NCBI RefSeq assembly: GCF_900099735.1
Contig: NZ_FNDT01000001.1
Coordinates: 341,722 to 365,721 of the forward strand
Origin: Arthrobacter subterraneus
Lineage (GTDB): Bacteria > Actinomycetota > Actinomycetes > Actinomycetales > Micrococcaceae
Direction of reading: 5' to 3'
Length of the DNA stretch: 24,000 nt
The translations under genes and the position numbers were made by a program. The notes under the pieces are model-generated. The model did not search any database. It worked only from the letters and a program-made list of their open reading frames with translations, and was not told the DNA's origin. Positions 357 to 19,485 of the stretch are shown here, piece after piece; positions within the stretch are counted from its first letter, which is position 1, and every line of letters begins with the position of its first letter.

Positions 357-2849
357 GTGAATCAAAAAACCCAAACCGCGGTCATGGAGGTATCCGGTGT
401 CCACTGGGCCTCGTCCAAGTCGGTCAGCGAATCCGTGCTGTCCCGCAGACCGGGCGTGCTCAGCGTGGAGACCAATCCTGTGGCCCAGACCGCCAACGTC
501 ACTTTCGACCCGGACCGGACTTCGGTCGCGGAACTGACCCGGTGGGTGCGTGAGTGCGGCTACCACTGCGCCGGCCAATCCGTGCCGGAGCACATCTGCG
601 ACCCCATGCATGAAGACCATGCAGGGCACGAAAGCCATTCAGGACACGGAACGACGGCGCTGAAGGAACCCGCGGCACCGGGCGGCACGGAGAACATCAC
701 GGTTCAGGAAGCTCAGGTCTCCCACGGGGAGCACGGGGAGCACGCCGGGCACGGCAAGGCCGCGGTCCGGGACGCGCAGGAAGTCATGGGCCACGGCGGG
801 CATGGCGGGCACGGCATGTCGATGGAGTCCATGATCCGTGACATGCGCAACCGCTTTCTCCTGGCGGCTCTGCTGTCAATACCCATCACCCTCTGGTCGC
901 CTATCGGGCGCGACGTCCTCGGCTTCACGGTCCCGGCCCCGTTCGGCCTGCGCGACGACGTCTTCGCGCTCATCCTGTCCCTGCCGGTGATCTTTTACTC
1001 GGCTTGGATCTTCTTTGACGGCGCCTACCGGGCGTTGAAGGCCCGCACCCTGGACATGATGGTCCTGGTCGCCGTCGGCGTCGGAGCCGGCTGGCTTTAC
1101 AGCCTCATCGTCACGCTGACCGGTGGCGGCGAAGTGTTCTACGAAGCGGCCACCGTCCTGGCCACCTTCGTGCTGCTGGGCCACTGGTTTGAAATGCGGG
1201 CACGGGGCGGCGCCAACGACGCCGTCCGTACGCTGCTCGAACTCGCACCCTCGATGGCCCTGGTCATTCGCGACGGGGAACCGGTGGAAGTCCCGACCGC
1301 CGAGGTGATGCCCGGGGATTTGATGCTGGTCCGTCCGGGATCGAAGATCCCCACCGACGGTGTCGTCGAAGAGGGCGAATCCGAGATCGATGAGTCCATG
1401 GTCACCGGGGAAAGCCTGCCGGTCGCCAAATCCGCCGGCTCTGAGGTGATCGGCGCTTCGGTGAATACCACCGGTACGCTCCGTGTCCGGGCCACCAAAG
1501 TCGGCGCCGACACCGCCCTGGCACAGATCGTCGCTCTGGTGCAGGAGGCCCAGAACTCCAAGGCACCCGGGCAGCGGCTGGCGGACCGGGCCGCGTTCTG
1601 GCTCGTGTTCGTCGCCCTGATCGGCGGCTCGGCGACGTTCCTGGCCTGGTGGCTCGCCGGCGCCAGTGTGGCCCAGGCTATCCTGTTCGCCATCACCGTG
1701 GTGGTCATCACTTGCCCTGACGCCCTCGGTCTGGCCACTCCGACCGCGATCATGGTCGGCACCGGGTTGGGCGCCAAACGCGGCGTGCTGTTCAAGAATG
1801 CCACGGCACTGGAAACCTCCGCCCGCATCGATACCGTAATTCTTGACAAGACCGGCACCCTGACCAAGGGCGAACCGGAAGTCACCGATTTCATCGCCCA
1901 CGGCATCGGCGAGGATGTACTTCTGGCCCTCGTCGCCGCAGTGGAACGCGAATCCGAGCACCCCCTGGCCGGCGCCGTCGTCAACTACGCCGTGGCCCGG
2001 GGCGTGTCCTCGCTGGACGCCAGTTCCTTCCGGAATGTCCCCGGACACGGTGCCGGTGCCACCGTGGACGGGCGCAGGGTCCTGGTGGGGAACCGAAAGC
2101 TCATGATTGCCGAAGGCGTTGATATTGCCCCCATCGCCGAGCAGCGTGAAACCCTCGCCTCCACCGGCCGCACCGCGGTGTTGGTGGCCGTGGACGGCAG
2201 GGCCGCCGGTGTCATCGCCTTGGCCGATGCCGCCCGCGAGACCGCTGCCCCCGCCGTGGCGGCCCTGCACGAGGCCGGGATCGAGGTTGTCATGCTCACC
2301 GGCGACAACGAGGCCACCGCCAGGCGCATCGCCGCCCAGCTGGGCATCGACACGGTCATCGCCGAGGTGCTCCCGGAGGATAAATCCGCGAAGGTAACCG
2401 AACTTCAGAAGGCGGGTAAACGGGTCGCCATGGTCGGCGACGGCGTCAACGACGCCCCCGCCCTCGCCCAGGCCGACCTCGGCATCGCCATCGGTGCCGG
2501 CACCGACGTGGCCATCGAAACCGCAGACGTGGTGCTCATGCGCTCTGATCCGCTGGACGTGCCCACAGCATTGCGCATCGGCAAGGGCACCGTGCGCAAG
2601 ATGCGCCAGAACCTGGGCTGGGCCATCGGCTACAACGTCATCGCTCTGCCGATCGCCGCCGGCGTCTTCTACCCCTCACTCGGCATCATGCTCAGCCCGG
2701 AAATCGCCGCCATTTCGATGTCCGGTTCCAGTGTCATCGTCGCGGTCAACGCCCTGCTCTTGAAGCGGCTGGACCTGCCGGAGCCGGGAGAGGCCATGGG
2801 CCAGGTCGCCGAAGCCGCGCCCGCACCCCAACCCACCGGCGCGAAGTAG
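357..2849 (+). CDS. P1B-type heavy-metal (copper-family) translocating P-type ATPase, His-rich N-terminus, CPD transmembrane motif
   Basis: 830-aa ORF with GTG start at 357 and GAGAGGA about 12 nt upstream. The translation carries TGESLP (actuator), DKTGTLT (phosphorylation site), SEHPLA, MLTGDN and GDGVNDAP. The TM signatures N-x5-GYN-x4-P and MSGSS-x5-N are typical of Cu-type P1B pumps. The TM metal motif reads C-P-D (nt 1713-1721). The N-terminus has an HMA-like segment lacking both CxxC cysteines, followed by about 80 aa rich in His/Gly/Glu. Confidence 0.93.
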
Positions 2850-2903: not shown

Positions 2904-5336
2904 ATGAACCACACTCAGGAACTGTCCGAGAAGGATTGCGTACTGACACCCGATCAGCTTCAGCGCATCCACGCCTGGTGGCGGGCGGCAAACTATCTGT
3001 CCGTGGGGCAGATTTATCTGATGGACAACCCGCTGCTGCGGGAACCGCTGCGGCCGGAGCATGTTAAGCCGCGGCTGCTGGGGCATTGGGGCACCACTCC
3101 GGGACTGAACTTCATTTACGCCCATTTGAACCGGGTCATCATGGAGCGGGACCTGGACATGATGTACGTCATGGGCCCGGGACACGGCGGGCCGGGCCCG
3201 GTCGCCGCCGGGTGGCTTGAAGGTACCTACAGCGAGACCTATCCCGATGTATCCCAGGACCTGGCGGGGATGAAACGGCTGTTCAAACAGTTCTCCTTCC
3301 CGGGAGGCATTCCCAGCCACGTCGCCCCGGAAACCCCCGGATCCATCCATGAAGGCGGGGAGCTGGGGTATGCCCTCTCCCACGCCTACGGGGCGGCCTT
3401 CGACAACCCGGACCTGATCGTCGCGGCGGTTGTGGGAGATGGGGAAGCCGAAACCGGGCCGCTGGCGGCGAGCTGGCACTCCAACAAGTTCATGAACCCG
3501 GCACGTGACGGGGCCGTGCTGCCGATCCTGCACCTGAACGGCTACAAGATCGCCAATCCCACGGTCCTGGCCCGCATGGACCGGGACGAACTGGACGGGC
3601 TGCTGCGCGGCTACGGCCACACCCCCTACTACGTTGAGGGCGAAGACCCGGACCAGATGCACCAGGACTTCGCCCGGACCCTGGACGCCTGCCTTGACGA
3701 GATCCGGGAAATCCGCCGCCGTGCCCGGGACGAGGGCCGGACCGAACGCCCGCGTTGGCCGATGATCGTGCTGCGCTCCCCCAAGGGATGGACGGGACCG
3801 GCCGAAGTCGACGGGCAGAAGGTCGAAGGCTCCTGGCGCTCCCACCAGGTGCCCTTCAGCGCCGCACGGGAAAACGAGAGCCACCGGCAGGTCCTGGAGG
3901 ACTGGCTGCGCAGCTACCGCCCGGAGGAACTTTTCGACGACTCCGGTGCCCCGGTCGAAGCGGTCCGCGCCCTGCACCCGGAAGGGGCACGGCGGATGAG
4001 CGCCAGCCCGCACGCCAACGGCGGTGTCCTGCTGAAGGACCTGCGGATGCCCGACTTCCGCGACTACGCGGTGCCGGTGTCCGAGCCGGGCACCGGGGCG
4101 GTGGAGGCCACCCGTGTGCTCGGTGAAATGCTGCGGGACGTCATGGCCGCCAACATGGACAACTTCAGGGTCTTCGCCCCGGATGAGAACAATTCGAACC
4201 GGCTCGGCGCCGTGCTGGAAGCCACGGACCGGGCCTGGAACGCCCGGACCGTCGAGGAGGATGACCATCTCGCCCGTGATGGCCGGGTGATGGAGATCCT
4301 CTCCGAGCACACCTGCCAGGGCTGGCTGGAAGGCTACCTGCTCACCGGCCGGCACGGGCTCTTCTCCTGCTACGAGGCCTTCATCCACATCGTGGACTCC
4401 ATGTTCAACCAGCACGCCAAGTGGCTGGATACCGCCAACGGCATCTCCTGGCGCCGGCCGGTCGCTTCCCTTAATTATCTGCTGACCTCCCACGTCTGGC
4501 GACAGGACCACAACGGCTTCTCCCATCAGGATCCGGGCTTCATCGACCACGTGATCAACAAGAAGTCCGAGGTGATCCGCGTGTACCTGCCGCCGGACGC
4601 GAACACGCTGCTGTCCGTCGCCGACCACTGCCTGCGCAGCCGCCAGTACGTCAACGTGATCGTGGCCGGCAAGCAGCCGCAGCTGCAGTATCTGGACATG
4701 GACGACGCCATCGTGCACTGCACCAAGGGCATCGGCATCTGGGACTGGGCCAGCACGGATGCCGGCACCGAACCGGACATGGTGATGGGGTGCGCCGGGG
4801 ACGTGCCGACCATGGAAACCCTGGCCGCCGTGGACATCCTGCGCTCCCGCTTCCCGGACCTGAAGATCCGGGTGGTCAACGTCGTGGACCTGATGCGGCT
4901 GCAGGACGACGCCGAAAATCCGCACGGCCTGGCCGACCGTGAGTTCGACGCCCTGTTCACCACGGACAAGCCGGTCATCTTCGCCTACCACGGCTACCCG
5001 TGGCTGATCCACCGGCTCACCTACCGGCGCACCAACCACGGCAACTTCCACGTCCGCGGGTACAAGGAGGAAGGCACGACCACGACACCGTTCGATATGT
5101 GCGTGCTCAACGAGATCGACCGGTTCAGCCTGGCCATCGACGTCATCGACCGGGTGCCGCGCCTGAAGGACATCGCGGCGCACGTGCGCGAGGAGCTGAA
5201 AAACAAGCTGATCGAGCACCGCCAGTACATCCGGACCCACGGCGAGGACATGCCCGAAATCAGGAACTGGCAATGGGCCGCCGTGCCCGGGCCGGCCAAC
5301 CAGCCGGCCGATGAAGCGCGAGAGGAACCGGTTTAG
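2904..5336 (+). CDS. xfp: Phosphoketolase (xylulose-5-P/fructose-6-P phosphoketolase)
   Basis: 810-aa ORF with ATG at 2904, preceded by GAAAGG. The N-terminus [25 protein letters not shown]...[46 protein letters not shown] and the GDGEAETGP (TPP-binding) blocks are characteristic of the phosphoketolase family. Length is typical (about 800 aa). Confidence 0.96.
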
Positions 5337-5337
5337 C

Positions 5338-8300
5338 ATGTCCCCCGTTCATCCCGGCGGACTACACCCGTCCCAGGCCTCCGGGCACCGCACCCTATTG
5401 CCCTTTGATGCTGTGCTCTTCGATATGGACGGAGTCGTTACCCGGACCGCCGTCGTACATGCGGCGGCCTGGAAGGAGCTGTTCGATTCCGTCCTGGCCG
5501 ACCCGCGGTCCGGCACAGGAGCGGACACCCCACCGTTCGACGCTGATGCGGACTACCGGCTTTATGTGGACGGCCGGAAGCGGGAAGACGGCATCCGCGC
5601 CTTCCTGGCCTCCCGCGGGCTGCACCTGTCCGAAGGTTCCCCCGGTGACCGGCCGGAAGCCTGGACGGTTGCCGGACTGGGGTCGCGCAAGAATGACCTG
5701 TTCCTCACGGCACTGGCCCGTGACGGGGTCAGCGCCTATCCCGGGACTGTCGCGCTGCTGGAACGGCTCCGCGAGGCGGGTATTCCCGTGGGCCTGGTCA
5801 CGGCCAGCCGCAACGCTGCTGCCCTCCTGAAGGCGGCGGGCCTCGAACCGGCATTCGACGTGATCATCGACGGCCAGACCGCCGAGGATCAGGGTTTGCC
5901 CGGCAAGCCGGATCCGGCGATGTTCCTCGAAGCCGCCCGCCGGCTCGGCGTGCCGCCGGAGTGTGCCGCGGTCATCGAGGATGCCGTCTCCGGCGTGCAG
6001 GCGGGCCGCCGCGGCGGCTTCGGGCTGGTGGTCGGCATCGACCGCACCGGTCACCGGGAGCAGCTGGAACTGGCGGGGGCCGACGTCGTCCTGGGCGATG
6101 TCGGCCAGCTGGATCTGGGTGCTTCACGCACCGATCCCTGGACGCTGGTCTACGAAGGATTCGACCCGGCGCACGAGGGCCACCGGGAGGCCCTGACCGC
6201 CCTGGGCAACGGGTACATGGCCACGCGCGGGGCACGCCCGGAGCGCAAGGACGACGGGATCCACTATCCGGGGACCTACCTGGCCGGGGTCTACAACCGG
6301 ACTGCGGGCCTCATCCACGGCCGCGAACTGGAAGAAGAGCACGTGGTCAACGTCCCCAACTGGCTGCCGGTCGACGTCCGCATCGGTGACGGGCCCTGGT
6401 GGTCAACCGGCGACCTCGACGTCACGGAAGAACGAAGTGAACTCGACCTGCGCCGGGGCGTGCTCACCCGCCGCGCCACCCTCACCGGCCCCGAAGGCGG
6501 GCAGCTGTCCGTGGTGCAGCGGCGGCTGGTCTCCATGCACCGCCACCACCTGGCGGCCCTGGAAACCACGCTGACGGCCCGCGGCTTCACCGGCACCCTC
6601 AGCGTCCGGGCGGGCATCGACGCCCAGGTGGCCAACACCAACGTCCGCGCCTACGTCGGCACCGGCCAGGGGCACCTGGCGGACGCCACGTTCACCGAGA
6701 CGGACAGCAGCACCGTCCTGTGCGAGGTCGAGACCACCCAGAGCCGGATACGGATCGCCCTCGCCGTCCGGACCGGGTTCAACGGCGCTGCAGCGGTCAC
6801 CTCCCGCGGTGCCGAAAACGGTAACGCACGGTACCGGCGGCAGTTCGACCTCCGGCTGGCCGACGGGCAGCCCGTCACCATGACCAGGACCGTGGCCCTG
6901 GCCACCTCCCGGGACGGTGCCATCTCCGCTCCCGCGGCTGGAGCCCTGGCGGAGCTGTCCCGCCACGATACCGGCTTCGGCACGCTGCTGGAGGACCACG
7001 AGGCGGCCTGGCGGCGGCTATGGGACCGGTTCGGGATCACCCTGGACGCGGACCGGCAGTCACAGCTGGTGCTCAACCTGCACGTGTTCCACCTGCTGCA
7101 GGCCATCTCCGGGCACAGCGCCGTCCTGGACGCCGGGGTGCCGGCCCGGGGCCTGCACGGGGAAGGCTACCGCGGACATGTGTTCTGGGACGAACTGTTC
7201 GTCCTGCCCGTGATCGGGCTGCGCCTGCCGGAGGTCAGCCGGGCGCTGCTGGAGTACCGCTGGCGGCGGCTGGACGCCGCGCGGTCCGCCGCCCGCGCCG
7301 AAGGCCTGAACGGCGCGCTCTTCCCCTGGCAGAGCGGCAGCGACGGCCGGGAGGAGACGCCCCGCCAACTGTACAACCCCCGGTCGGCCCGGTGGATGCC
7401 GGATAACTCCAGCCGCCAGCGCCACGTCGGACTCGCCGTCGCCTACAACGCCTGGCAGCACTTCCAGGCCACCGGCGACCGGGACTGGCTGGCATCCCGC
7501 GGGGCGGAACTGATCATCGAAGTGACCAGGATGTTCGCCTCCCTGGCCACCTTCGACCCGGCCGGGGACAGATACCACATCGCCGGCGTGATGGGACCGG
7601 ACGAGTACCACGACGGCTACCCCGACGCGCCCGGGACCGGCCTGCGCGATAACGCCTACACCAACGTCCTGCTCTCCTGGATCTGCGACCGCGCGGCCGA
7701 CGTGCTGCGGGAACTGGCAGGCCACCCCGGCGACGATGTCGCCGACCGGCTGCACATCAGTCCGGAGGAGATCAGCCGCTGGTCCCGGCTCGGTTCCAGG
7801 CTCGCCGTCGCTTTCCATGCTGACGGGGTCATCAGCCAGTTCGACGGGTACGAGGACCTGCTCGAACTGGACTGGCCGCGTTACCGCGCCAGGTACGGCA
7901 ACATCGGGCGCCTGGATTTGATCCTCGAAGCCGAAAACGACGACACCAACCGGTACAAACTGGCCAAACAGGCCGACGTGCTGATGCTCCTCTATCTTCT
8001 CGGGCCCGCCGGCGTGACCGGCCAGCTGCGCCGGCTCGGCTATCCGGTCACCGAAGAGGACCTGGAACGCACGGTAAATTACTACCTCTCCCGCACGGCA
8101 GAAGGTTCCACGCTCAGCCGCGTAGTGCACGCCTCGGTGCTCTCCCGGTTTGACGCATCCCGGGCCTGGCAGGTCTTCCGCGAAGCCCTGATCGCCGATC
8201 TGGACGACACCCAGGGCGGCACCACGCGTGAGGGAATCCACCTGGGCGCGATGTCCGGGACGGTCGACATTGTTATCCGCTCCTTTGCCGGCCTACAAAT

Positions 8301-8595
8301 CGAGGCCGACGCCCTGACCTTCGCTCCCCGGCTGCCCGCCCACCTGGGAACAACCGGATTCCAGGTCCAGTACCGGGGGCACCGCATCGACGTGCACCTG
8401 GGCCCGGAACACCTCCGGATCCGGCTGCAGCCCTGCACCGCGCCCCCGGTCCGCATCGGCGTCGCGGGAAACTACGCGCTGCTCGCCGGCGGCGACGAAA
8501 AGACTTTCCCCGTAGCGTCAACGCCGGGACTGTCCGGGCCGGCACCAACCACAAAACCAACAACGCAACCGCAATCAGGAAGGACAAGCCCATGA
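5338..8595 (+). CDS. Fusion protein: HAD-superfamily beta-phosphoglucomutase-like domain + glycoside hydrolase family 65 (disaccharide phosphorylase-like) domain
   Basis: Continuous frame. I prefer ATG 5338 (1085 aa), which lies 1 nt after the xfp TAG with GAGAGGA upstream, over the track start at 5311, which overlaps xfp. The N-terminal ~250 aa show HAD motifs: LFDMDGVVT (DxD, nt 5422-5430), VTASRN, GKPDPAMF and EDAVSGVQAG. The remainder shows GH65-like blocks (YRGHVFWDELFVLP, FPWQSGSDGREETP, AYNAWQ). Confidence 0.88.
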   Translation: MSPVHPGGLHPSQASGHRTLLPFDAVLFDMDGVVTRTAVVHAAAWKELFDSVLADPRSGTGADTPPFDADADYRLYVDGRKREDGIRAFLASRGLHLSEGSPGDRPEAWTVAGLGSRKNDLFLTALARDGVSAYPGTVALLERLREAGIPVGLVTASRNAAALLKAAGLEPAFDVIIDGQTAEDQGLPGKPDPAMFLEAARRLGVPPECAAVIEDAVSGVQAGRRGGFGLVVGIDRTGHREQLELAGADVVLGDVGQLDLGASRTDPWTLVYEGFDPAHEGHREALTALGNGYMATRGARPERKDDGIHYPGTYLAGVYNRTAGLIHGRELEEEHVVNVPNWLPVDVRIGDGPWWSTGDLDVTEERSELDLRRGVLTRRATLTGPEGGQLSVVQRRLVSMHRHHLAALETTLTARGFTGTLSVRAGIDAQVANTNVRAYVGTGQGHLADATFTETDSSTVLCEVETTQSRIRIALAVRTGFNGAAAVTSRGAENGNARYRRQFDLRLADGQPVTMTRTVALATSRDGAISAPAAGALAELSRHDTGFGTLLEDHEAAWRRLWDRFGITLDADRQSQLVLNLHVFHLLQAISGHSAVLDAGVPARGLHGEGYRGHVFWDELFVLPVIGLRLPEVSRALLEYRWRRLDAARSAARAEGLNGALFPWQSGSDGREETPRQLYNPRSARWMPDNSSRQRHVGLAVAYNAWQHFQATGDRDWLASRGAELIIEVTRMFASLATFDPAGDRYHIAGVMGPDEYHDGYPDAPGTGLRDNAYTNVLLSWICDRAADVLRELAGHPGDDVADRLHISPEEISRWSRLGSRLAVAFHADGVISQFDGYEDLLELDWPRYRARYGNIGRLDLILEAENDDTNRYKLAKQADVLMLLYLLGPAGVTGQLRRLGYPVTEEDLERTVNYYLSRTAEGSTLSRVVHASVLSRFDASRAWQVFREALIADLDDTQGGTTREGIHLGAMSGTVDIVIRSFAGLQIEADALTFAPRLPAHLGTTGFQVQYRGHRIDVHLGPEHLRIRLQPCTAPPVRIGVAGNYALLAGGDEKTFPVASTPGLSGPAPTTKPTTQPQSGRTSP

Positions 8596-10834: not shown

Positions 10835-11818
10835 ATGAACCTCTCGGACCGCCCTTCGTCCCGCCTCCGTTCCAGCGGCGGCAGCCACGGTGCTCCCATG
10901 CGTAACCGTGACGGAGGCGTCCCTGTGAGACCGGCCGGACCGGGAAATCCCTTGCGGCGGCCGAAGCCGTTACGCATGCTCTGGATCACCTTTGCCTGGG
11001 GATCCTGTTTCCTGGCCATCAATATAGGACTGGAGGACGCGCCGGTCCTGTGGTTCGCCGCGTTGCGGGCGCTCCTCGCCGGCGGAGCCCTCCTCGCGGT
11101 GGCGGGGCTGCGGCGGGCGCCGATGCCGCGTGGACGGCGGACCTGGCTGCTGATAACGGTGCTGGGCGTTGTCAACGTGTCGGTGGCCTTCGGCGCCATG
11201 TTCGGCGGCCTGGTCGGGCTCTCGACGGGGGCCGCCTCGGTCCTGGCCAATGCCCAGCCGTTGCTCATCGTGCTTCCGGCCTGGTGGATCTACAAGGAAA
11301 GGATCTCGCCAAGGACTCTGGCCGCGGTCGGTGTTGGCTTTGCGGGACTGCTGGCTGTGGCCGCACCCGGTGGCGCGGGCACCGGGGCATGGCTATCGCT
11401 GACCTCGGCTCTGGCAATCACCGCCGGAACACTTATTTCACGGCAGCTGAAGTCCAACGTCCTGCCGGTGATCGGATGGCATTTCGTGGTCGGTGGCGTG
11501 GTACTGGCGCTGGCAGCCTGGCTGACCGAGGGCGCCCCGGCCATTAATTGGAGTGCACGGTTCGTCGCCATTCTCCTGTATGTGTCCCTCGTGGGGACCG
11601 CCGCGGCATTCCTCGCCTGGTTTACCGAGGTCCAGCACTGCCGCCTGGACACTCTTTCGGCGTGGACCTTCCTGGTGCCGGTATTCGGCATCCTGCTGTC
11701 GATACTCATCCTGGGAGAACCCCAGACCTTCTGGAGCATGGCCGGCATGGGCTTGGTTGTGCTGTCCATGGTCTTCCTGACAGCGCCGGGGAAACGCAGC
11801 GTCCAAGCGCCCCAATGA
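10835..11818 (+). CDS. EamA/DMT-superfamily permease
   Basis: 327-aa ORF, almost entirely hydrophobic helices after an Arg/Pro-rich leader. It has the two-repeat DMT look (WITFAWGSCFLAINIGL... and ...VSLVGTAAAFLAWFTEVQH). The start is uncertain: ATG 10835, 10898 and 10976 are all in frame. GGAGGAGG lies at 10812-10819. Confidence 0.75.
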   Translation: MNLSDRPSSRLRSSGGSHGAPMRNRDGGVPVRPAGPGNPLRRPKPLRMLWITFAWGSCFLAINIGLEDAPVLWFAALRALLAGGALLAVAGLRRAPMPRGRRTWLLITVLGVVNVSVAFGAMFGGLVGLSTGAASVLANAQPLLIVLPAWWIYKERISPRTLAAVGVGFAGLLAVAAPGGAGTGAWLSLTSALAITAGTLISRQLKSNVLPVIGWHFVVGGVVLALAAWLTEGAPAINWSARFVAILLYVSLVGTAAAFLAWFTEVQHCRLDTLSAWTFLVPVFGILLSILILGEPQTFWSMAGMGLVVLSMVFLTAPGKRSVQAPQ

Positions 11819-13186: not shown

Positions 13187-15436
13187 GTGCCGGATCCATG
13201 CTGTGACGCCGGGTCGATGACCACAAGCGGCGCCGCGCTGCCCTCAGCAAACGGTCCCGGCGCAGACAACGTGGGCAGTGGCACCGCCGAACCCCACGGC
13301 GCTGTCCCGGATGATCAGCCAGGCAGTGCGTCGATGACGGAGTGCGCCCCCTGCGTGGCCCGGCCGCTGCCGCTGCCCCAACGCGTGGAGTCAGTCCGGG
13401 CGGCCATTGCGGCAGAGCCGGAGCCGCTGGTCACACTGACGCACCTGCTGCAGCTGTGCCGTGACGAGCACCCGGTGCTGCAGGAACGGATACAGGATCC
13501 CGCCTGCCGAGCCCGGGCAGCACGGATCGCAGCCGGCGTGATGCCGCTGCTGCCCGCCCAGGCGCCGGGGGCCGTGTTCGGCCCGCAGGCCCGCGGTGCC
13601 CTTGCGGCAGCACTGGCCCCGGACCCGGACCTGCCGGCTGTAGTGGTGGCGCGCGCCCTGGCCGAACTGCTCGACGAACACTATTTCCGCAGCTTCATCG
13701 AGTCCTTTCGCCGCCGCAGCCCCTACCAGCCGGGGGTGGGCGATCCTATCCCGCTGGACAGTCCCGATCTACGGCAGGTCACCACGCTTCCGCCGACGTC
13801 CCCGCCGTGGCGGCTGGCCAACCGCCTGGACGAGACCCGCCACGTCCGGCTGGCCGGCGAGTGGGTCATGCAGTTCCAGGTCGTCTTCGACTACGGTCTG
13901 GCCGGCGCACTCAGCGGCCTCATCGGTCCGGACACCATCGTGGCAACCTGCCATCCGAACCAGACGTTAGCCGAGTTCCGGTTCCCTGCCGACACCCGGG
14001 GCCGTACCTTCCCGGTCCGCCCCGCGGACGAACAACGCCAGCACCGGGAAATTGACCGGCTGATCGGCGCAGCCGTTGCCGCCGGCGCGAGCATCGTCGT
14101 GCTTCCCGAACTGTGCGTCACCGAGCCGCTGGCCGCCCGGCTGCAGGGCTGGACCTGCCGCCCCGACGGGCCGCGGATGCTGGTCGCCGGCAGCTACCAT
14201 CACGACGGGCACGACGGGCACGACGGGCCGCCGCGGCGGCGCAACACCGCCGTCGCCTATCTGCGCGGCTGCCCGTCCCCACTGACCCAGGACAAGCATT
14301 CCCCTGCCGACCGGCCGGTCAACGAAGACATCCAGCCGCCGGGCTGGCCGCAGTTACGCGTCCATGTCAGCGACGACGGATGGCACCTGGTGATGGCGAT
14401 CTGCCGGGACCTGCTCAACCCGCACGCCGTGCACGCCCTGACCGAGGCCGGCGCCAACCTCCTGCTGGTACCGGCAATGAGCGAGACTATGACCGCCTTC
14501 GGTGGCCCCGTGGCGAACCTTGTCGGAGCGGGCCAGGCCTTCGTGGCGGTGGCCAACAACCCCGCCGATTTCTCCGGCCCGGCCGAGCCGACCGCCCGCC
14601 GGCCCGCCCGGGCACTGTTCGGCCACCCCGGCTTCGGGCAGCTGACCCGGCTCGTGCAGCCGCCCGGAGCCGAGCCGGGCGTGGCGCTGCTGCACGTGCA
14701 GACCGGACAGCTGCAATGGCTGGACACCGGTACCGCCCGGCCGCACCCGGGCCGTACCGGAACCGCGATGCTGCCGGTGTGGGCCGGCCGGCTGGCCCGG
14801 CTGACCGGGCCGGCCCGCTTCGGACCGGACCGGTGGCAGTCAACGCAGGTCGCCCTGCGGGCCGCGGCGGCGCTTGTACTGCTCACCGACGACAGCCGGC
14901 ACGGCCCGGCGGTACTGCTCACCGAACGCGCACCCGACCTGGCCCACTACCCGGGGCAACTGGTCTTTCCCGGCGGCGGCGCCGAAGCCGGCGACGACGG
15001 GCCGGCCGCCACAGCGCTGCGCGAGGCCGCCGAGGAAACCGGACTGGACCCGGGCAGCGTACAGATTCTCGGCACCCTGCCCCCGCTGGCGCATCCCGAC
15101 AGCGGCTTCCTGCTCACCCCGGTACTCGCCTGGTCGGCAGGTCCCGTCTTCACGGGCACGACCAACCTGGCCGAAGTCAGCACACTCACCACCATTCCCC
15201 TGCGCCGGCGCGCATACGCAGATCCTGAAGAACGGGCCCTGGCTGCGGACCAGGGAACACCGATTGGTGGTTCCCGGCCTGCCCCGCTTGGAGCCGTCAC
15301 CGGAACAATCCTCGACCTGCTCAGAGGCATGCTCGACCTGGGCGGGACACCGGATGCCGCGACGGCCGGGGCCGACCCCGTACAAGGAACGGTCCTACCA
15401 CCACTGACCCTCCGATCCTGGAAGCAGTCACAGTGA
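13187..15436 (+). CDS. Multidomain protein: unknown N-terminal region + nitrilase-superfamily C-N hydrolase domain + CoA-pyrophosphatase-type Nudix hydrolase domain
   Basis: Single 749-codon frame. The start is uncertain: GTG 13187, ATG 13217 or ATG 13334. C-N hydrolase blocks occur in canonical order: IVVLPELC (Glu, nt 14108-14110), TQDKHSP (Lys, 14294-14296) and VMAICRDLLNP (Cys, 14402-14404). The Nudix region is LLTERAPDLAHYPGQLVFPGGGAEAGDDGPAATALREAAEETGL (box at nt 14972-15046). Residues 1 to about 215 are not recognisable. Confidence 0.8.
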   Translation: MPDPCCDAGSMTTSGAALPSANGPGADNVGSGTAEPHGAVPDDQPGSASMTECAPCVARPLPLPQRVESVRAAIAAEPEPLVTLTHLLQLCRDEHPVLQERIQDPACRARAARIAAGVMPLLPAQAPGAVFGPQARGALAAALAPDPDLPAVVVARALAELLDEHYFRSFIESFRRRSPYQPGVGDPIPLDSPDLRQVTTLPPTSPPWRLANRLDETRHVRLAGEWVMQFQVVFDYGLAGALSGLIGPDTIVATCHPNQTLAEFRFPADTRGRTFPVRPADEQRQHREIDRLIGAAVAAGASIVVLPELCVTEPLAARLQGWTCRPDGPRMLVAGSYHHDGHDGHDGPPRRRNTAVAYLRGCPSPLTQDKHSPADRPVNEDIQPPGWPQLRVHVSDDGWHLVMAICRDLLNPHAVHALTEAGANLLLVPAMSETMTAFGGPVANLVGAGQAFVAVANNPADFSGPAEPTARRPARALFGHPGFGQLTRLVQPPGAEPGVALLHVQTGQLQWLDTGTARPHPGRTGTAMLPVWAGRLARLTGPARFGPDRWQSTQVALRAAAALVLLTDDSRHGPAVLLTERAPDLAHYPGQLVFPGGGAEAGDDGPAATALREAAEETGLDPGSVQILGTLPPLAHPDSGFLLTPVLAWSAGPVFTGTTNLAEVSTLTTIPLRRRAYADPEERALAADQGTPIGGSRPAPLGAVTGTILDLLRGMLDLGGTPDAATAGADPVQGTVLPPLTLRSWKQSQ
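14201..14227 (+). repeat. In-frame 9-bp tandem repeat (CACGACGGG x3) encoding HDGHDGHDG
   Basis: Three perfect copies, in frame (codons 339-347 counted from 13187). They lie between the Glu and Lys blocks of the C-N hydrolase domain. Confidence 0.9.
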
Positions 15437-15447
15437 CAGGTGGCGGG

Positions 15448-17106
15448 TCAGCGCTTCTTCCGGCGCGCGGTCCAGGCCAGGTAGGAACCCAGCGTAGCGC
15501 CCGCGCCGAGTCCTGCCCCCATGAGCGCCCGCGCCCACCGGCGAAACTCTTCCTTGTCGGCAACGACCAGTTCGCCCACACCTCTGATGAATGCGGCGGC
15601 GATCAGCCCTGCCACCAGGCGGTTGCCGATGCGCTCGGCCCGCTCCATGAGAGGCTCGAGTTCCGCCGCACGCAGATGCAGTTCGAAGCCGTCGGTATCC
15701 ATGAGGTCCAGGATCCGGCGAAGCTTTCCGGGCAGCTCGACGCCCAGTTCAGCGGCATCCAGCCCGGCCTGTCCAAACCGCCTGGCATAGGCGGAGGGCG
15801 AAAAGCTGTGCAGTGCCAGCCGCTGCGCGTAGGGGCTGAGCGTCTCGGTGAGGTTGAATGCCGGATCCAGCCGGACCCCTATGCCTTCTGCCATGAGAAC
15901 CATCTTCAGGATCAGCGCGATTTCACGGGGCAGCTGCAGGTGGTGCTCGCGCAACAGCGCGAGCAGCCGGCCGATCAGCGGCGCGATGTCAATCTCGGCC
16001 AGCTGGCGGTCCTGATAAAGGGCCAGGACCGCGGTAAGGTCTGCGCGCAGCCGTGCACGGTCCACGGGCCGTTTCGCAACGGACAGGTCCAGCAAGGCCG
16101 AGCCGGCCCGCTCCGGGTCGGCTCGGGCCAATGCGACCAGCAGGACAGCGAGTTGCCCCCGCAGCTTCTCGTCCACCTCACCGACCATGCCAAAGTCGAT
16201 CAGCCCGATGCGGCCGCCCGTTTCGATGAAAAGATTTCCCGGATGCGGGTCGGCGTGGAAAAAGCCGTCCTCGAAGATCATCTGCGCGATGACGCCGACC
16301 GCGCGGTTGGCCAGCGCGCGGCGGTCGATCCCGGCCCGGTCCAGGCCTTCGAGGTCATCGACCTTGACCCCGCTGATCCGCTCCAAGGTCAGCACCCGGG
16401 AGGTGGTGGTACCCCAAAAAACCCGCGGGATGTGTACGCCCGGATTCCCGGCGAAATTCCCGGCGAACCGTTCCGCGTTACGCCCTTCCTGCAGATAGTC
16501 GAGTTCGGCGCGCAGGGTCCGGGCAAATTCCCCGGCCAAACCGGCCAGGTTGTAGTCGGCGGCTGCCTCCCACCGGCGGTCCGCCTGGGCGGCCAGATTC
16601 TGCAGGATCTCCAGATCCTCCTGGACGCGTGCAACCACGCCGGGCCGGCGGACCTTGACGACGACGCGGGTCCCGTCGGCGAGCAGGGCAGCGTGTGCCT
16701 GTCCGATCGAGGCACTGGCCAGCGGCTCGCTCTCGAACTCGGCGAAGAGCTCCTCCGGGCCGGCGCCGAGTTCCTGCTGTATCAGCCGCCGCACCGTCTC
16801 GCCGGGCACGGGCGGTGCCCCGTCCTGGAGCTTGGCCAGCTCCTGCAGATACTCCGGCGGCAGCAGATCCGAACGCGTGGAGAGCAGCTGGCCGAGCTTG
16901 ATGAACGTCGGGCCGAGCTGTTCAAGGGCCAGCCGAAGGTGTTCCGGATTCGTGTAGGACAGCTCGCGGGACTCATGGCCCAGCACCCCGTGGTGGAACG
17001 GGACCCACCGCTCAAGCCCCGTGATCCCGGCGAGGAAGCCCAGTCCATGCCGGGCCAGGACCTCGGCAATCTCCCGGTACCGGCCGGCGTGACTGCTGAC
17101 GACCAC
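15448..17106 (-). CDS. ABC1/UbiB/AarF-family atypical protein kinase
   Basis: 552-aa ORF with GTG start at 17106 and AAGGAG 5 nt upstream on the minus strand. Family blocks: LEQLGPTFIKLGQLLSTRSDLLPPEY, ASIGQAHAALL, FFHADPHPGNLF and LIDFGMVG. The C-terminus has two hydrophobic helices and a basic tail. Confidence 0.92.
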   Translation of the reverse strand: MVVSSHAGRYREIAEVLARHGLGFLAGITGLERWVPFHHGVLGHESRELSYTNPEHLRLALEQLGPTFIKLGQLLSTRSDLLPPEYLQELAKLQDGAPPVPGETVRRLIQQELGAGPEELFAEFESEPLASASIGQAHAALLADGTRVVVKVRRPGVVARVQEDLEILQNLAAQADRRWEAAADYNLAGLAGEFARTLRAELDYLQEGRNAERFAGNFAGNPGVHIPRVFWGTTTSRVLTLERISGVKVDDLEGLDRAGIDRRALANRAVGVIAQMIFEDGFFHADPHPGNLFIETGGRIGLIDFGMVGEVDEKLRGQLAVLLVALARADPERAGSALLDLSVAKRPVDRARLRADLTAVLALYQDRQLAEIDIAPLIGRLLALLREHHLQLPREIALILKMVLMAEGIGVRLDPAFNLTETLSPYAQRLALHSFSPSAYARRFGQAGLDAAELGVELPGKLRRILDLMDTDGFELHLRAAELEPLMERAERIGNRLVAGLIAAAFIRGVGELVVADKEEFRRWARALMGAGLGAGATLGSYLAWTARRKKR

Positions 17107-17269
17107 AGGCGCTCCTTGCTGGACGGGCGGGACCGGCGGGGCGGATCGCCGCGAGACGGCCGGAATAACGTCGGTCCCTGAGTAGTTTAACCTGTCCGGA
17201 GACCACTGCTACGCCTTGTAGAATAATACCGGTAAACAACCAGCCCCACAGGACGGAAAGAACGGGTCC

Positions 17270-17785: not shown

Positions 17786-17943
17786 CTGGTATACGTCACA
17801 GGCCGCTGCCTTGCTCCGGTGCCCTCTTAATATTTAGCCCGTGTCCGTTGACGTGCGTCCGGCACGTGCTTCGACGCCACCGCCTCCCGGCGCGTCGAGC
17901 CAACAGCTCTTGAACCTTGGTCCCTCGTGGAAAGAAAGCCCTC

Positions 17944-19485
17944 ATGAACCGTCTCCTTACCCGCCGCTCGGTCCTCTCAGCCTCCGTAGCCACCGCTACC
18001 GCGGCCGCCCTTGCCGCCTGTTCCAATCCTTCGGCCCCGGCCGGCGCAGCCACCCGGATCCTGCCGACCGATCCGCTGATCGCAGACTTCGAAGCCCGCC
18101 GCGCCGCCGGCGGGGCGATAGTCACCCAACAACTCACCGCCGCACCGTTCAACACGCAAATCACCGGGAAGTCCCTGACCACCTTGGGCTACAACGGGTC
18201 CCTGAACGGCCCGCTGATCCGGGCTAAAACAGGAGACCTGCTCGACATACCGGTGGCGAACAAACTCACCGAAGGCAGCAGCGTGCACTGGCACGGCCTG
18301 GCCCTGCGCAACGACGCCGACGGCGTCCAGGGCCTCACCCAGGAGCCGATCGCCGCCGGAGCGGACTACAGCTACCGGTTCCGGCTGGCCCACCCGGGCA
18401 CCTACTGGTACCACTCCCACTTCGATATGCAGCGCGAGCGTGCCCTTTACGGGGCCCTGGTCATCGAGGATCCGAAAGAGGCCCTGTCCTACGACCAGGA
18501 GTGGGTCATCATCCTCGATGACTGGCTCGATGGCATCACCGGCACCCCAGAGGAAGCCCTGGAAGAGCTGTCCATGGGCATGGACATGTCCGGCGGCAAC
18601 ATGGAAGGCATGGACCACGGCGACATGGGCGGGATGGACATGGGCATGAAGCATATGCTCATGGGCGCCACCAGCGACTATCTGGGCGGCGACGCCGGGG
18701 ACGTGAAGATCCCGGTCCACCTGTTCAACGGAAAACCACCCCAGGATCCCGAGATCCTGGACAGCAGGCCCGGAAACAGGGTCCGGCTGCGGATCATCAA
18801 TGCCGCCGGCGACACGGCCTACCGGGTCGGCGTGCCCGGGCAGAAGATTACCCTGACCCACACGGACGGCTTCCCCGTCCAGCAGCAGGACGTTGACGCC
18901 GTCGTGCTCGGCATGGGCGAACGCATCGATGCCCTGCTCACGGTGCGCGACGGCTACACGCCCGTCCTGGCGCTGCCGGAAGGCAAGGACGGCAATGCCT
19001 ACGGGCTGATCAGCACGGGCATCGGCACGGCACCGTCAAGCAACCGTCTGCCGAAGGCGCTGGACGGAACCGTCACGGACGGCAGCCGCCTGAAAGCGGA
19101 CGAGTCCGTCCTGTTCGCCCCCAAGCCGCCTGACCGGGTCCACGAGATGCGGCTGACCGGATCCATGGAGAAATACGACTGGGGCATCAACGGGCGACGC
19201 TTTGACATGGCCAATCCGCTCGACGGGGCCTTCGACCTCCGCCTGGACGAGCGCGTACAGGTCAAGATCGTCAACGACACCGACATGTGGCACCCCATGC
19301 ACCTGCACGGCCACACCTTCCAACTCGCCGGCAACGGTGCCCGCAAGGACACCGTCATCGTCAAACCCAAACAGACGGTGGTCTTCGAATTCGACGCCGA
19401 CAACCCCGGCCAATGGCTCACCCACTGCCACAACTCCTACCACGCCGAAGCCGGCATGATGGGCGTCTTCTCCTACCTCAAGTAA
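17944..19485 (+). CDS. Multicopper oxidase, predicted Tat-exported lipoprotein, with Met/His/Asp-rich insert
   Basis: I prefer ATG 17944 (513 aa) because the product then begins MNRLLTRRSVLSASVATATAAALAAC, a twin-Arg signal plus an LAAC lipobox. The four copper-ligand blocks are present: VHWHGL, YWYHSH, HPMHLHGH and HCHNSYHAEAGMM. The insert MGMDMSGGNMEGMDHGDMGGMDMGMKHMLMG spans nt 18574-18666. Confidence 0.93.
   Translation: MNRLLTRRSVLSASVATATAAALAACSNPSAPAGAATRILPTDPLIADFEARRAAGGAIVTQQLTAAPFNTQITGKSLTTLGYNGSLNGPLIRAKTGDLLDIPVANKLTEGSSVHWHGLALRNDADGVQGLTQEPIAAGADYSYRFRLAHPGTYWYHSHFDMQRERALYGALVIEDPKEALSYDQEWVIILDDWLDGITGTPEEALEELSMGMDMSGGNMEGMDHGDMGGMDMGMKHMLMGATSDYLGGDAGDVKIPVHLFNGKPPQDPEILDSRPGNRVRLRIINAAGDTAYRVGVPGQKITLTHTDGFPVQQQDVDAVVLGMGERIDALLTVRDGYTPVLALPEGKDGNAYGLISTGIGTAPSSNRLPKALDGTVTDGSRLKADESVLFAPKPPDRVHEMRLTGSMEKYDWGINGRRFDMANPLDGAFDLRLDERVQVKIVNDTDMWHPMHLHGHTFQLAGNGARKDTVIVKPKQTVVFEFDADNPGQWLTHCHNSYHAEAGMMGVFSYLK

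Follow-up and report, generated by a model that had tools for sequence, protein, structure and literature searches.

A conserved actinobacterial protein joining a helical N-terminal domain, a nitrilase-superfamily domain and a CoA-type Nudix domain, encoded on mobile copper/stress islands

Coenzyme A (CoA) pyrophosphatases such as NudL of Escherichia coli, DR1184, human NUDT7, Arabidopsis NUDT11 and yeast Pcd1 are single-domain Nudix enzymes of about 190-240 amino acids (aa) with an LLTxR...G...FPGG signature upstream of the Nudix box. Amidases of the nitrilase superfamily, among them NitN of Nesterenkonia, N-carbamoylputrescine (CPA) amidohydrolase, the formamidase AmiF, the omega-amidase Nit2 and the glutaminase domain of glutamine-dependent NAD+ synthetase, have a common fold and a Glu-Lys-Glu-Cys catalytic set. 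Pantetheinase (vanin), which hydrolyzes the pantothenate-cysteamine amide, and biotinidase belong to the same superfamily; vanins are secreted or glycosylphosphatidylinositol (GPI)-anchored eukaryotic enzymes with a different second domain. In the NitFhit protein of flies and worms the amidase Nit is joined to Fhit, an Ap3A hydrolase of the HIT family. Here we describe a gene of Arthrobacter subterraneus whose product, below called the fusion protein, carries a nitrilase-superfamily domain and a CoA-type Nudix domain behind an N-terminal helical domain (N-domain). The gene lies in a stretch of 24,000 nucleotides (contig NZ_FNDT01000001.1, positions 341,722 to 365,721), referred to as the window.

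The fusion protein resembles each of these systems in part. Its Nudix domain has the fold and, except at one position, the upstream signature of the CoA pyrophosphatases, and the Nudix-box variant G-x5-D-x8-REAxEExGL that is present in NUDT7, but forms only the C-terminal quarter of a protein of 749 aa. Its nitrilase domain has the fold and catalytic residues of the solved amidases at an identity of only 10-20%, and the branch to which it belongs possesses an obligate N-domain and connector, about 200 residues together, found in no solved nitrilase; no specific similarity to pantetheinase, vanin or biotinidase was detected among the PDB profile matches with E<=10 or the 50 best Foldseek matches listed. 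NitFhit follows the same logic, an amidase combined with a nucleotide-pyrophosphate hydrolase, but is an analogy only, since the fusion protein has a Nudix hydrolase in place of a HIT one, its nitrilase lies outside the branch-10 Nit proteins, the order is nitrilase-Nudix with an added N-domain, and the gene is bacterial and island-borne. Degradation of CoA in bacteria is described as having been unknown before NudC and NudL (bioRxiv 10.1101/2020.01.31.929182). On peptides that carry CoA-cysteine disulfides, the ADP part is taken off by a CoA-type Nudix enzyme, and the enzymes removing CoA from oxidised or CoAlated targets are undefined (PMC5989533).

The fusion gene is a single unbroken open reading frame (ORF) of 749 codons and a stop, opening with GTG (coordinates of all features are collected in Table 1). 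Since the DNA is 63-74% G+C and rich in long shadow ORFs, the reality of this frame was checked. The G+C content at codon positions 1, 2 and 3 is 0.77, 0.56 and 0.82, respectively, and is coding-like throughout, in all 100-codon blocks. Comparison with the gene for a 97% identical protein of Arthrobacter sp. VKM Ac-2550 (46 nucleotide differences) gave a ratio of non-synonymous to synonymous substitutions (dN/dS) of about 0.2. An artefact, either a chance long ORF of high-GC DNA or two genes fused by a sequencing error, might be suspected because such DNA holds many long shadow ORFs, for example 15433..17181 on the plus strand, which has no family match. This explanation is refuted by the same domain order in more than 120 independent clusters of full-length homologues from isolates, metagenome-assembled genomes (MAGs) and plasmids, by the loci found across species, by the frame-specific signal at third codon positions along the entire ORF and by the dN/dS value; the probability left to it is negligible. 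The initial annotation of the window, made from the sequence alone, had read an uninterrupted 749-codon frame here, and these data bear it out.

The ends of the protein are variable. Three candidate starts were considered: GTG 13187, ATG 13217 (M11), which is the annotated start in the closest homologue P0001, and ATG 13334 (M50), where the homologue P0002 begins. The real start may be one of the two ATG codons instead of the GTG. The length of the N-terminal extension varies from 0 to 101 aa across the family, and residues 1-52 of the window protein are probably disordered in the structural model. At the other end, the last ~29 residues differ completely between the window protein (...DPVQGTVLPPLTLRSWKQSQ) and its otherwise 97% identical VKM Ac-2550 relative (...GPGPGPGQSYHH); comparison of the two suggests an indel or frameshift within an unconstrained C-terminal tail.

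An AlphaFold2 model of the fusion protein was built from an alignment of 100 homologues (mean predicted local distance difference test score, pLDDT, 80.4; predicted template modelling score, pTM, 0.72). Four parts were resolved in it: a helical bundle (residues ~60-178), a connector (179-250), a nitrilase fold (~251-515) and a Nudix fold (~556-720). The pTM value suggests that these parts adopt a defined inter-domain arrangement. The 100 full-length homologues align end to end, and E308, K370, E380 and C406 of the nitrilase domain, as well as R612, E613, E616 and E617 of the Nudix domain, are invariant in all of them. Judging from this conservation, both catalytic domains are intact and strongly constrained, and the nitrilase-Nudix fusion is obligate in its sub-branch, as represented by the 100 aligned members. 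The fusion and its linker are strictly conserved as an architecture across orders of Actinomycetota. A natural split of the protein was considered for locus L037 and rejected: this apparent two-ORF case, the one examined, is due to a frameshift within the Nudix domain, not at the linker. In the homologue P0043, which has no Nudix domain, similarity breaks off abruptly within the linker; it looks like a frameshift product and was likewise set aside.

The assignment of the Nudix domain rests on several comparisons. The Pfam family NUDIX (PF00293) matched the window protein with E 3.6e-15 (56.6 bits against a threshold of 21.1). Among NCBIfam families the best match was NF007980 (CoA pyrophosphatase, E 5.9e-22), the next family following at 1.8e-5. 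A family profile compared with the PDB gave AtNUDT11 (1.3e-26), DR1184 (1.2e-22) and NUDT7 (4e-22), with MutT reaching only ~1e-5 (2.5e-5). In a Foldseek search, NUDT7 was matched at 2.8e-11 and DR1184 at 40% identity, and the top six matches were all NUDT7 or NUDT11. The Nudix box is G597-x5-D603-x8-R612. Upstream of it, the signature LLTxR[SA]-x3-[RK]-x3-G-x3-FPGG, which we take to be the PROSITE NUDIX_COA pattern, is fitted at every position except [RK], where the window protein has A586. In most members of the family T, A or G stands here, and R occurs as well. The deviation need not be disqualifying, because AtNUDT11, with S, and DR1184, with P, both of them CoA pyrophosphatases of solved structure, likewise show no basic residue here in the profile alignments. 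On these profile and fold comparisons the domain is a member of the CoA-pyrophosphatase subgroup.

For the central domain, the agreement in fold was unambiguous. The pLDDT is mostly above 85 over residues 250-515, which form an alpha-beta-beta-alpha sandwich. Foldseek matched this region to the NitN amidase with E 7.5e-9 (probability 1.0, TM-target 0.63) and also to CPA amidohydrolase, AmiF and Nit2. The Glu of the PEL motif (E308) and the Cys of the CRD motif (C406) correspond in the alignment to the catalytic residues E41 and C145 of Nesterenkonia amidase (the entry 4izt being its E41Q form), and the catalytic Lys aligns within the match to the NAD-synthetase glutaminase domain. The model thus presents the central domain as a nitrilase fold with a Cys-Glu-Lys-Glu catalytic set. 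It most resembles generic amidases of small amides, the glutaminase domains of NAD synthetases, and Nit2.

The N-domain has no such relatives. Residues 1 to ~215 matched no Pfam family, Foldseek found no PDB fold for the N-domain better than E = 1.3, and an N-domain profile retrieved only 116 representatives among 1.84 billion proteins. The connector that follows is folded in the full-length model and falls below a pLDDT of 50 when the N-domain is modelled in isolation; as predicted by these models, it folds only when the nitrilase domain is present. In addition to the CAPC motif, H86 is present in 93 of the 100 homologues and C91 and H95 in all of them. C53, C56, H86, C91 and H95 form a candidate metal or redox site of the Nudix-fused sub-branch. 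The N-domain is specific to this nitrilase branch and probably has a regulatory function or one in sensing metal or redox state. The reading of the individual domains in the initial annotation was close to these results: it had placed E308, K370, C406 and the Nudix segment LLTERAPDLAHYPGQLVFPGGGAEAGDDGPAATALREAAEETGL where they are located by coordinates, had named the catalytic Glu, Lys and Cys exactly, as the invariance and the Nesterenkonia alignment confirm, had assigned the Nudix domain to the CoA-pyrophosphatase subgroup with one position off the signature (A586), and had found nothing recognisable in residues 1 to ~215.

Homologues of the fusion protein are numerous. Among 5.8 billion proteins searched, 345 clusters matched, more than 120 of them full-length (~700 aa) with 54-97% identity, and a scan of one genome per species revealed 48 loci, nearly all in Actinomycetota. 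The fusion was found in Micrococcales, Mycobacteriales, Streptomyces, Pseudonocardiales, Geodermatophilales, Propionibacteriales and Acidimicrobiia. It is also present on 16 plasmids: twelve from Rhodococcus, pMSPYR101 of Mycolicibacterium gilvum, and others from M. vanbaalenii and Streptomyces mirabilis, with a partial match in Mycobacterium paragordonae. In the source annotations the homologues are described merely as 'NUDIX domain-containing protein' or 'amidohydrolase', and the architecture matched no characterised protein, PDB structure, NCBIfam family or paper in the PDB, NCBIfam and literature searched; there was no mention of the family in papers on the S. lividans metal island or the Rhodococcus WAY2 genome. 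The initial annotation had called the fusion undescribed-looking and knew of no characterised protein of this architecture. Both statements stand; with 345 clusters and 48 species genomes the family is fairly widespread, and it is uncharacterised but not rare. The fusion protein brings two familiar catalytic folds together with an N-domain structurally without precedent, and its family is conserved, mobile and uncharacterised. The sole locus outside Actinomycetota (L033) is on a 6.9-kb contig of a MAG labelled Verrucomicrobiota. Its neighbours, cytochrome b and a P-type ATPase, match the actinobacterial island described below. The locus probably reflects a mistake in binning, or else a recent transfer. 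Mycolicibacterium chlorophenolicum DSM 43826 has two copies of the fusion gene on separate contigs, in different island arrangements.

About one third of the N-domain representatives listed are proteins of about 435-530 aa that consist of the N-domain and the nitrilase core without Nudix. These Nudix-less relatives (e.g. P0167, P0184, P0200, P0223) are 23-34% identical to the fusion protein, keep the catalytic set and share the connector; they have no CxxC motif and are, like the fusion family, uncharacterised. Because the unit of N-domain and nitrilase is shared with them, it is assigned, as far as these alignments go, to an older and distinct branch of the superfamily, to which Nudix was added in one sub-branch that also gained the CxxC. 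At four loci a Nudix-less gene is directly followed by a winged-helix/MarR-like gene of 194-478 aa (L055, 8001-10837; L056, 396-3232; L058, 3928-6555; L059, 3412-5489), which suggests a conserved two-gene module. The pair of L055 lies ~4 kb from McrBC, and the relative P0217 adjoins type I restriction-modification (R-M) genes.

For the genomic context, coding-like ORFs within 10 kb of the fusion gene were clustered, recurrent clusters were annotated, and markers were counted by tblastn in 49 non-redundant loci (Table 1, last column). Of the 32 non-redundant loci that span 15 kb or more, 27 have a copper marker (HMA-ATPase, multicopper oxidase, CsoR, DUF305 or CopD) within 10 kb. Further recurrent neighbours are DUF305, SHOCT, cytochrome b, M48 peptidase and YflT. 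CsoR proteins of the Streptomyces locus L053 and of L054 have the C...H...C pattern of Cu(I) ligands. In L054 the fusion gene is 218 nt downstream of copA, and on pMSPYR101 it stands beside genes for a heavy-metal ATPase, multicopper oxidase, DUF305 and SHOCT. UbiB/ABC1 is the commonest immediate neighbour in loci of the Arthrobacter group and Mycolicibacterium, and an EamA gene lies directly upstream, overlapping the fusion start, in two Blastococcus loci (L015, L018) and in Arthrobacter sp. 260 (L023). Gene order in the VKM Ac-2550 locus (L004) is the same as in the window. Some segments of the island share ~80% DNA identity with Corynebacterium and Citricoccus plasmids and ~78% with a Pseudarthrobacter plasmid. 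The fusion gene belongs to a mobile copper/stress island rather than to an operon, and this context, which the initial annotation had missed, is the strongest functional clue at hand.

Table 1. Features of the fusion gene and its neighbourhood. Coordinates are positions in the window; the last column gives the number of loci, out of the 49 non-redundant ones, in which a marker was counted.
Feature	Residues	Coordinates	Strand	Basis or remarks	Loci
Full fusion ORF (N-domain, nitrilase-superfamily and CoA-type Nudix domains)		13187..15436	+	Coding composition; full-length homologues	
Variable N-terminal extension	1-52	13187..13342	+	Unconserved in alignments; pLDDT <50	
CAPC motif, C53-x-x-C56	53-56	13343..13354	+	C53 in 74/100, C56 in 93/100 homologues	
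Family-specific helical N-domain	60-178	13364..13720	+	AlphaFold2 pLDDT >90	
Connector, FRRRSPYQPGVGDPIPLD and TSPPWRLANRLDETRHVRLAGEW	179-250	13721..13936	+	Highly conserved; invariant alignment columns	
Nitrilase-superfamily (CN_hydrolase) domain	~251-515	13937..14731	+	Pfam; Foldseek; catalytic residues	
Catalytic E308	308	14108-14110	+	Invariant, 100/100	
Catalytic K370	370	14294-14296	+	Invariant, 100/100	
Catalytic E380	380	14324-14326	+	Invariant, 100/100	
Catalytic C406	406	14402-14404	+	Invariant, 100/100	
Inter-domain linker	516-555	14732..14851	+	Poorly conserved except W532	
CoA-type Nudix domain	556-720	14852..15346	+	Pfam; NCBIfam; PDB profile; Foldseek	
CoA signature and Nudix box, LLTERAPDLAHYPGQLVFPGGGAEAGDDGPAATALREAAEETGL		14915-15046	+	Motif location by coordinates	
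C-terminal tail and stop	721-749	15347..15436	+	Unconserved	
HMA-domain heavy-metal (copper-type) P-type ATPase		357..2849	+	Pfam; 42-89% identity in the loci counted	25/49
EamA/DMT-family transporter		10835..11818	+	Pfam	20/49
UbiB/ABC1 atypical kinase, convergent		15448..17106	-	Pfam ABC1, 4.5e-77	13/49
Multicopper oxidase		17917..19485	+	Pfam; recurrent in related loci	10/49
GH65+HAD					18/49
Phosphoketolase					13/49
CsoR					11/49
Usp					11/49
ICMT-like methyltransferase					11/49
GAPDH-like protein					11/49

These observations could be explained if the fusion protein were located in the cytoplasm and hydrolyzed thiol metabolites of the CoA type by two activities, serving the cell under copper or thiol stress. 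The Nudix domain would split the diphosphate of CoA or of a derivative (CoA disulfide, mixed disulfide, metal-thiolate or acyl-CoA) to give 3',5'-ADP and a 4'-phosphopantetheine moiety, and the nitrilase domain would cleave a non-peptide amide in the Nudix product or in a related thiol metabolite. The Cys/His-bearing N-domain (CxxC...H...C...H) would be a regulatory or metal/redox-sensing module, and the gene an accessory part of an island for copper resistance and stress survival that spreads by horizontal transfer. Clearing or remodelling of CoA-type thiol cofactors under copper or thiol stress is put forward as the likely role because the gene rides on this island. We hold this interpretation tentatively, giving it a little under an even chance as a whole; the substrates, the coupling of the two activities, the role of the N-domain and the induction by copper are presumed in it.

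Several results weigh against this interpretation. The score for NF007980 is 78.2 bits, well below the equivalog cut-off of 134 bits; because of this and of the three-part architecture the fusion protein is, by its sequence, not a NudL orthologue. The two domains proposed in the initial annotation also fared differently with Pfam: NUDIX was above its threshold, whereas CN_hydrolase (PF00795) matched the window protein with E 3.1e-4 and 20.6 bits, below the gathering score of 23.2 bits. We nevertheless accept the nitrilase domain, because the fold and the catalytic triad confirm it; a precomputed PF00795 match is present in many homologues, and the domain of the window protein is a divergent branch of the superfamily, not a non-member. 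With respect to the context, no copper marker was found in 5 of the 32 long loci. A fixed operon partner was sought in the loci and none was found, the immediate neighbours varying by lineage (UbiB, EamA, Usp, CopA, alcohol dehydrogenase), and the context therefore represents a theme and not a pathway. An operator of the CsoR/RicR type (TACCC-N-GGGTA and relaxed forms) was absent from the 500 nt upstream of the gene in 38 loci, and direct copper regulation is therefore unproven. The sole enriched k-mer of this upstream set turned out to be the coding sequence of the CAPCVA motif, and a scan for promoter and terminator consensus sequences around the fusion gene gave nothing. Finally, the islands also hold phosphoketolase, acetate kinase, GH65-HAD, GlgX and Usp genes, and their theme could be general stress or dormancy instead of copper. 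A DosR/dormancy-regulon reading, presumably fitting the Usp, OtsB1-like GH65-HAD and P-type ATPase genes, was also considered; the copper markers are the theme with direct support.

Other explanations differ mainly in how the two active domains are connected. They may be two independent house-cleaning activities, the Nudix domain clearing oxidised or damaged CoA and the nitrilase domain handling an unrelated damaged amide in the style of Nit1/Nit2 metabolite repair, or an amide derived from mycothiol, with the fusion serving only for co-expression under stress. Nit2 and other omega-amidase-like enzymes are indeed among the closest folds, NCBIfam gave a faint match to deaminated glutathione amidase (E 0.077), and the islands hold the general stress genes for Usp, YflT and M48 peptidase. 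We consider this explanation somewhat unlikely, as the strictly conserved fusion and linker and the pTM of 0.72 would be a better fit to functional coupling. Coupling could, in turn, mean a sequential dismantling of CoA, in which the 4'-phosphopantetheine released by the Nudix domain would be converted by the nitrilase domain, acting as a (phospho)pantetheinase, to cysteamine and (phospho)pantothenate; under copper, the cysteamine could act as a chelator and might leave the cell through the EamA transporter encoded nearby. Such a route is chemically plausible, it would agree with the obligate fusion of a CoA-type Nudix domain to an amidase in the 100 aligned full-length members (the split at L037 being a frameshift), pantetheinase (vanin) is known to be in the nitrilase superfamily, and the EamA/DMT gene is recurrent and at times overlaps the gene start. 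However, no vanin, biotinidase or pantetheinase was among the 31 PDB profile matches with E<=10 or the best 50 listed Foldseek matches, the nearest relatives of the nitrilase domain being those named above. Moreover, relatives that have this N-domain and nitrilase core but no Nudix domain occur in unrelated contexts, which argues that the amidase core did not evolve for the product of the Nudix domain, and the precedent of NitFhit is not known to be a consecutive two-step pathway. In our estimate the sequential route, which the initial annotation had proposed as pyrophosphate cleavage followed by amide cleavage, is unsupported and unlikely.

A more specific form of it, in which the protein would act in copper defence, is less probable again and is to be regarded as a long shot. 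Here CoA, whether free or bound to Cu(I) or in a disulfide, would yield 4'-phosphopantetheine through the Nudix domain, the nitrilase domain would be the first bacterial (phospho)pantetheinase, the cysteamine formed would chelate copper and may be exported by EamA, and the Cys/His-rich N-domain would switch the enzyme on upon binding copper. A role as a conflict or defence effector was considered as well, with the nitrilase domain toxic as in CARF-nitrilase or DRT1 systems and the Nudix domain degrading a nucleotide signal or cofactor during phage infection. The DRT1 nitrilase domain was matched at E 9e-4, and two of the Nudix-less relatives have McrBC or type I R-M genes next to them. The match to CARF_nitrilase in PADLOC (E 0.053, 10.1 bits) is the sole one and is not significant, the Nudix-fused family is found in metal/stress islands and not in defence islands (27 of the 32 long loci), and no typical defence sensor or partner recurs nearby. 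A defence role is thus very improbable, and hydrolysis of CoA-type thiols in a copper/stress setting is the explanation we prefer.

The remaining genes of the window were also examined. Between positions 357 and 23792 the order is copper-type P-type ATPase, phosphoketolase, GH65+HAD, GAPDH-like protein, DUF2933, ICMT-like methyltransferase, EamA, Zn-dependent alcohol dehydrogenase and the fusion gene, and, downstream of it, UbiB (minus strand), DUF6153, multicopper oxidase, GlgX, acetate kinase (minus strand) and Usp. The same set of genes occurs, shuffled, in distant Actinomycetota and on plasmids. The window is a single stress island that combines copper resistance with a route from glycogen/trehalose through acetyl-phosphate to ATP (phosphoketolase and acetate kinase). 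The fusion gene stands alone in it. It begins 184 nt past the alcohol dehydrogenase gene and converges with UbiB, only 11 nt separating their stop codons. The plus-strand ORF 15433..17181, of 582 codons, overlaps the fusion stop by 4 nt and was rejected as a coupled partner; the opposite strand encodes UbiB/ABC1, and the ORF is a shadow of that gene.

Positions 2970-8403, which contain the phosphoketolase and GH65-HAD genes, are ~80% identical at the DNA level to sequences of Corynebacterium marinum, C. comes and Citricoccus plasmids, a similarity that indicates recent horizontal spread across families. The GH65+HAD gene begins (ATG 5311) inside the 3' end of the phosphoketolase gene (stop 5336), an overlap of 26 nt, and the start of the GAPDH-like gene (8592) overlaps the GH65+HAD stop (8595), so that the three genes look like a translationally coupled unit. 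In the Streptomyces locus L053, extra paralogues of Lnt (apolipoprotein N-acyltransferase, a nitrilase-superfamily enzyme) and Lgt are encoded at 3094-5550, and an ECF sigma factor gene followed by a gene for a 284-aa protein with no Pfam match is immediately upstream of the fusion gene. The same locus also has CopD, an Rv1733c-like protein, a cytochrome b-DUF305 fusion, Usp and CsoR.

Little is understood of how bacteria turn over CoA, and the family described here offers a testable entry to the handling of thiol cofactors by actinobacteria under copper stress; the copper-gene context makes it experimentally approachable. It defines a new branch of the nitrilase superfamily with a domain of no structural precedent, and it points to a widely transferred actinobacterial island in which copper resistance is combined with energy metabolism based on phosphoketolase and acetate kinase. 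If the copper-defence reading were true, the fusion protein would represent a new arm of bacterial copper resistance together with a defined bacterial pathway of CoA degradation, which would be a substantial discovery.

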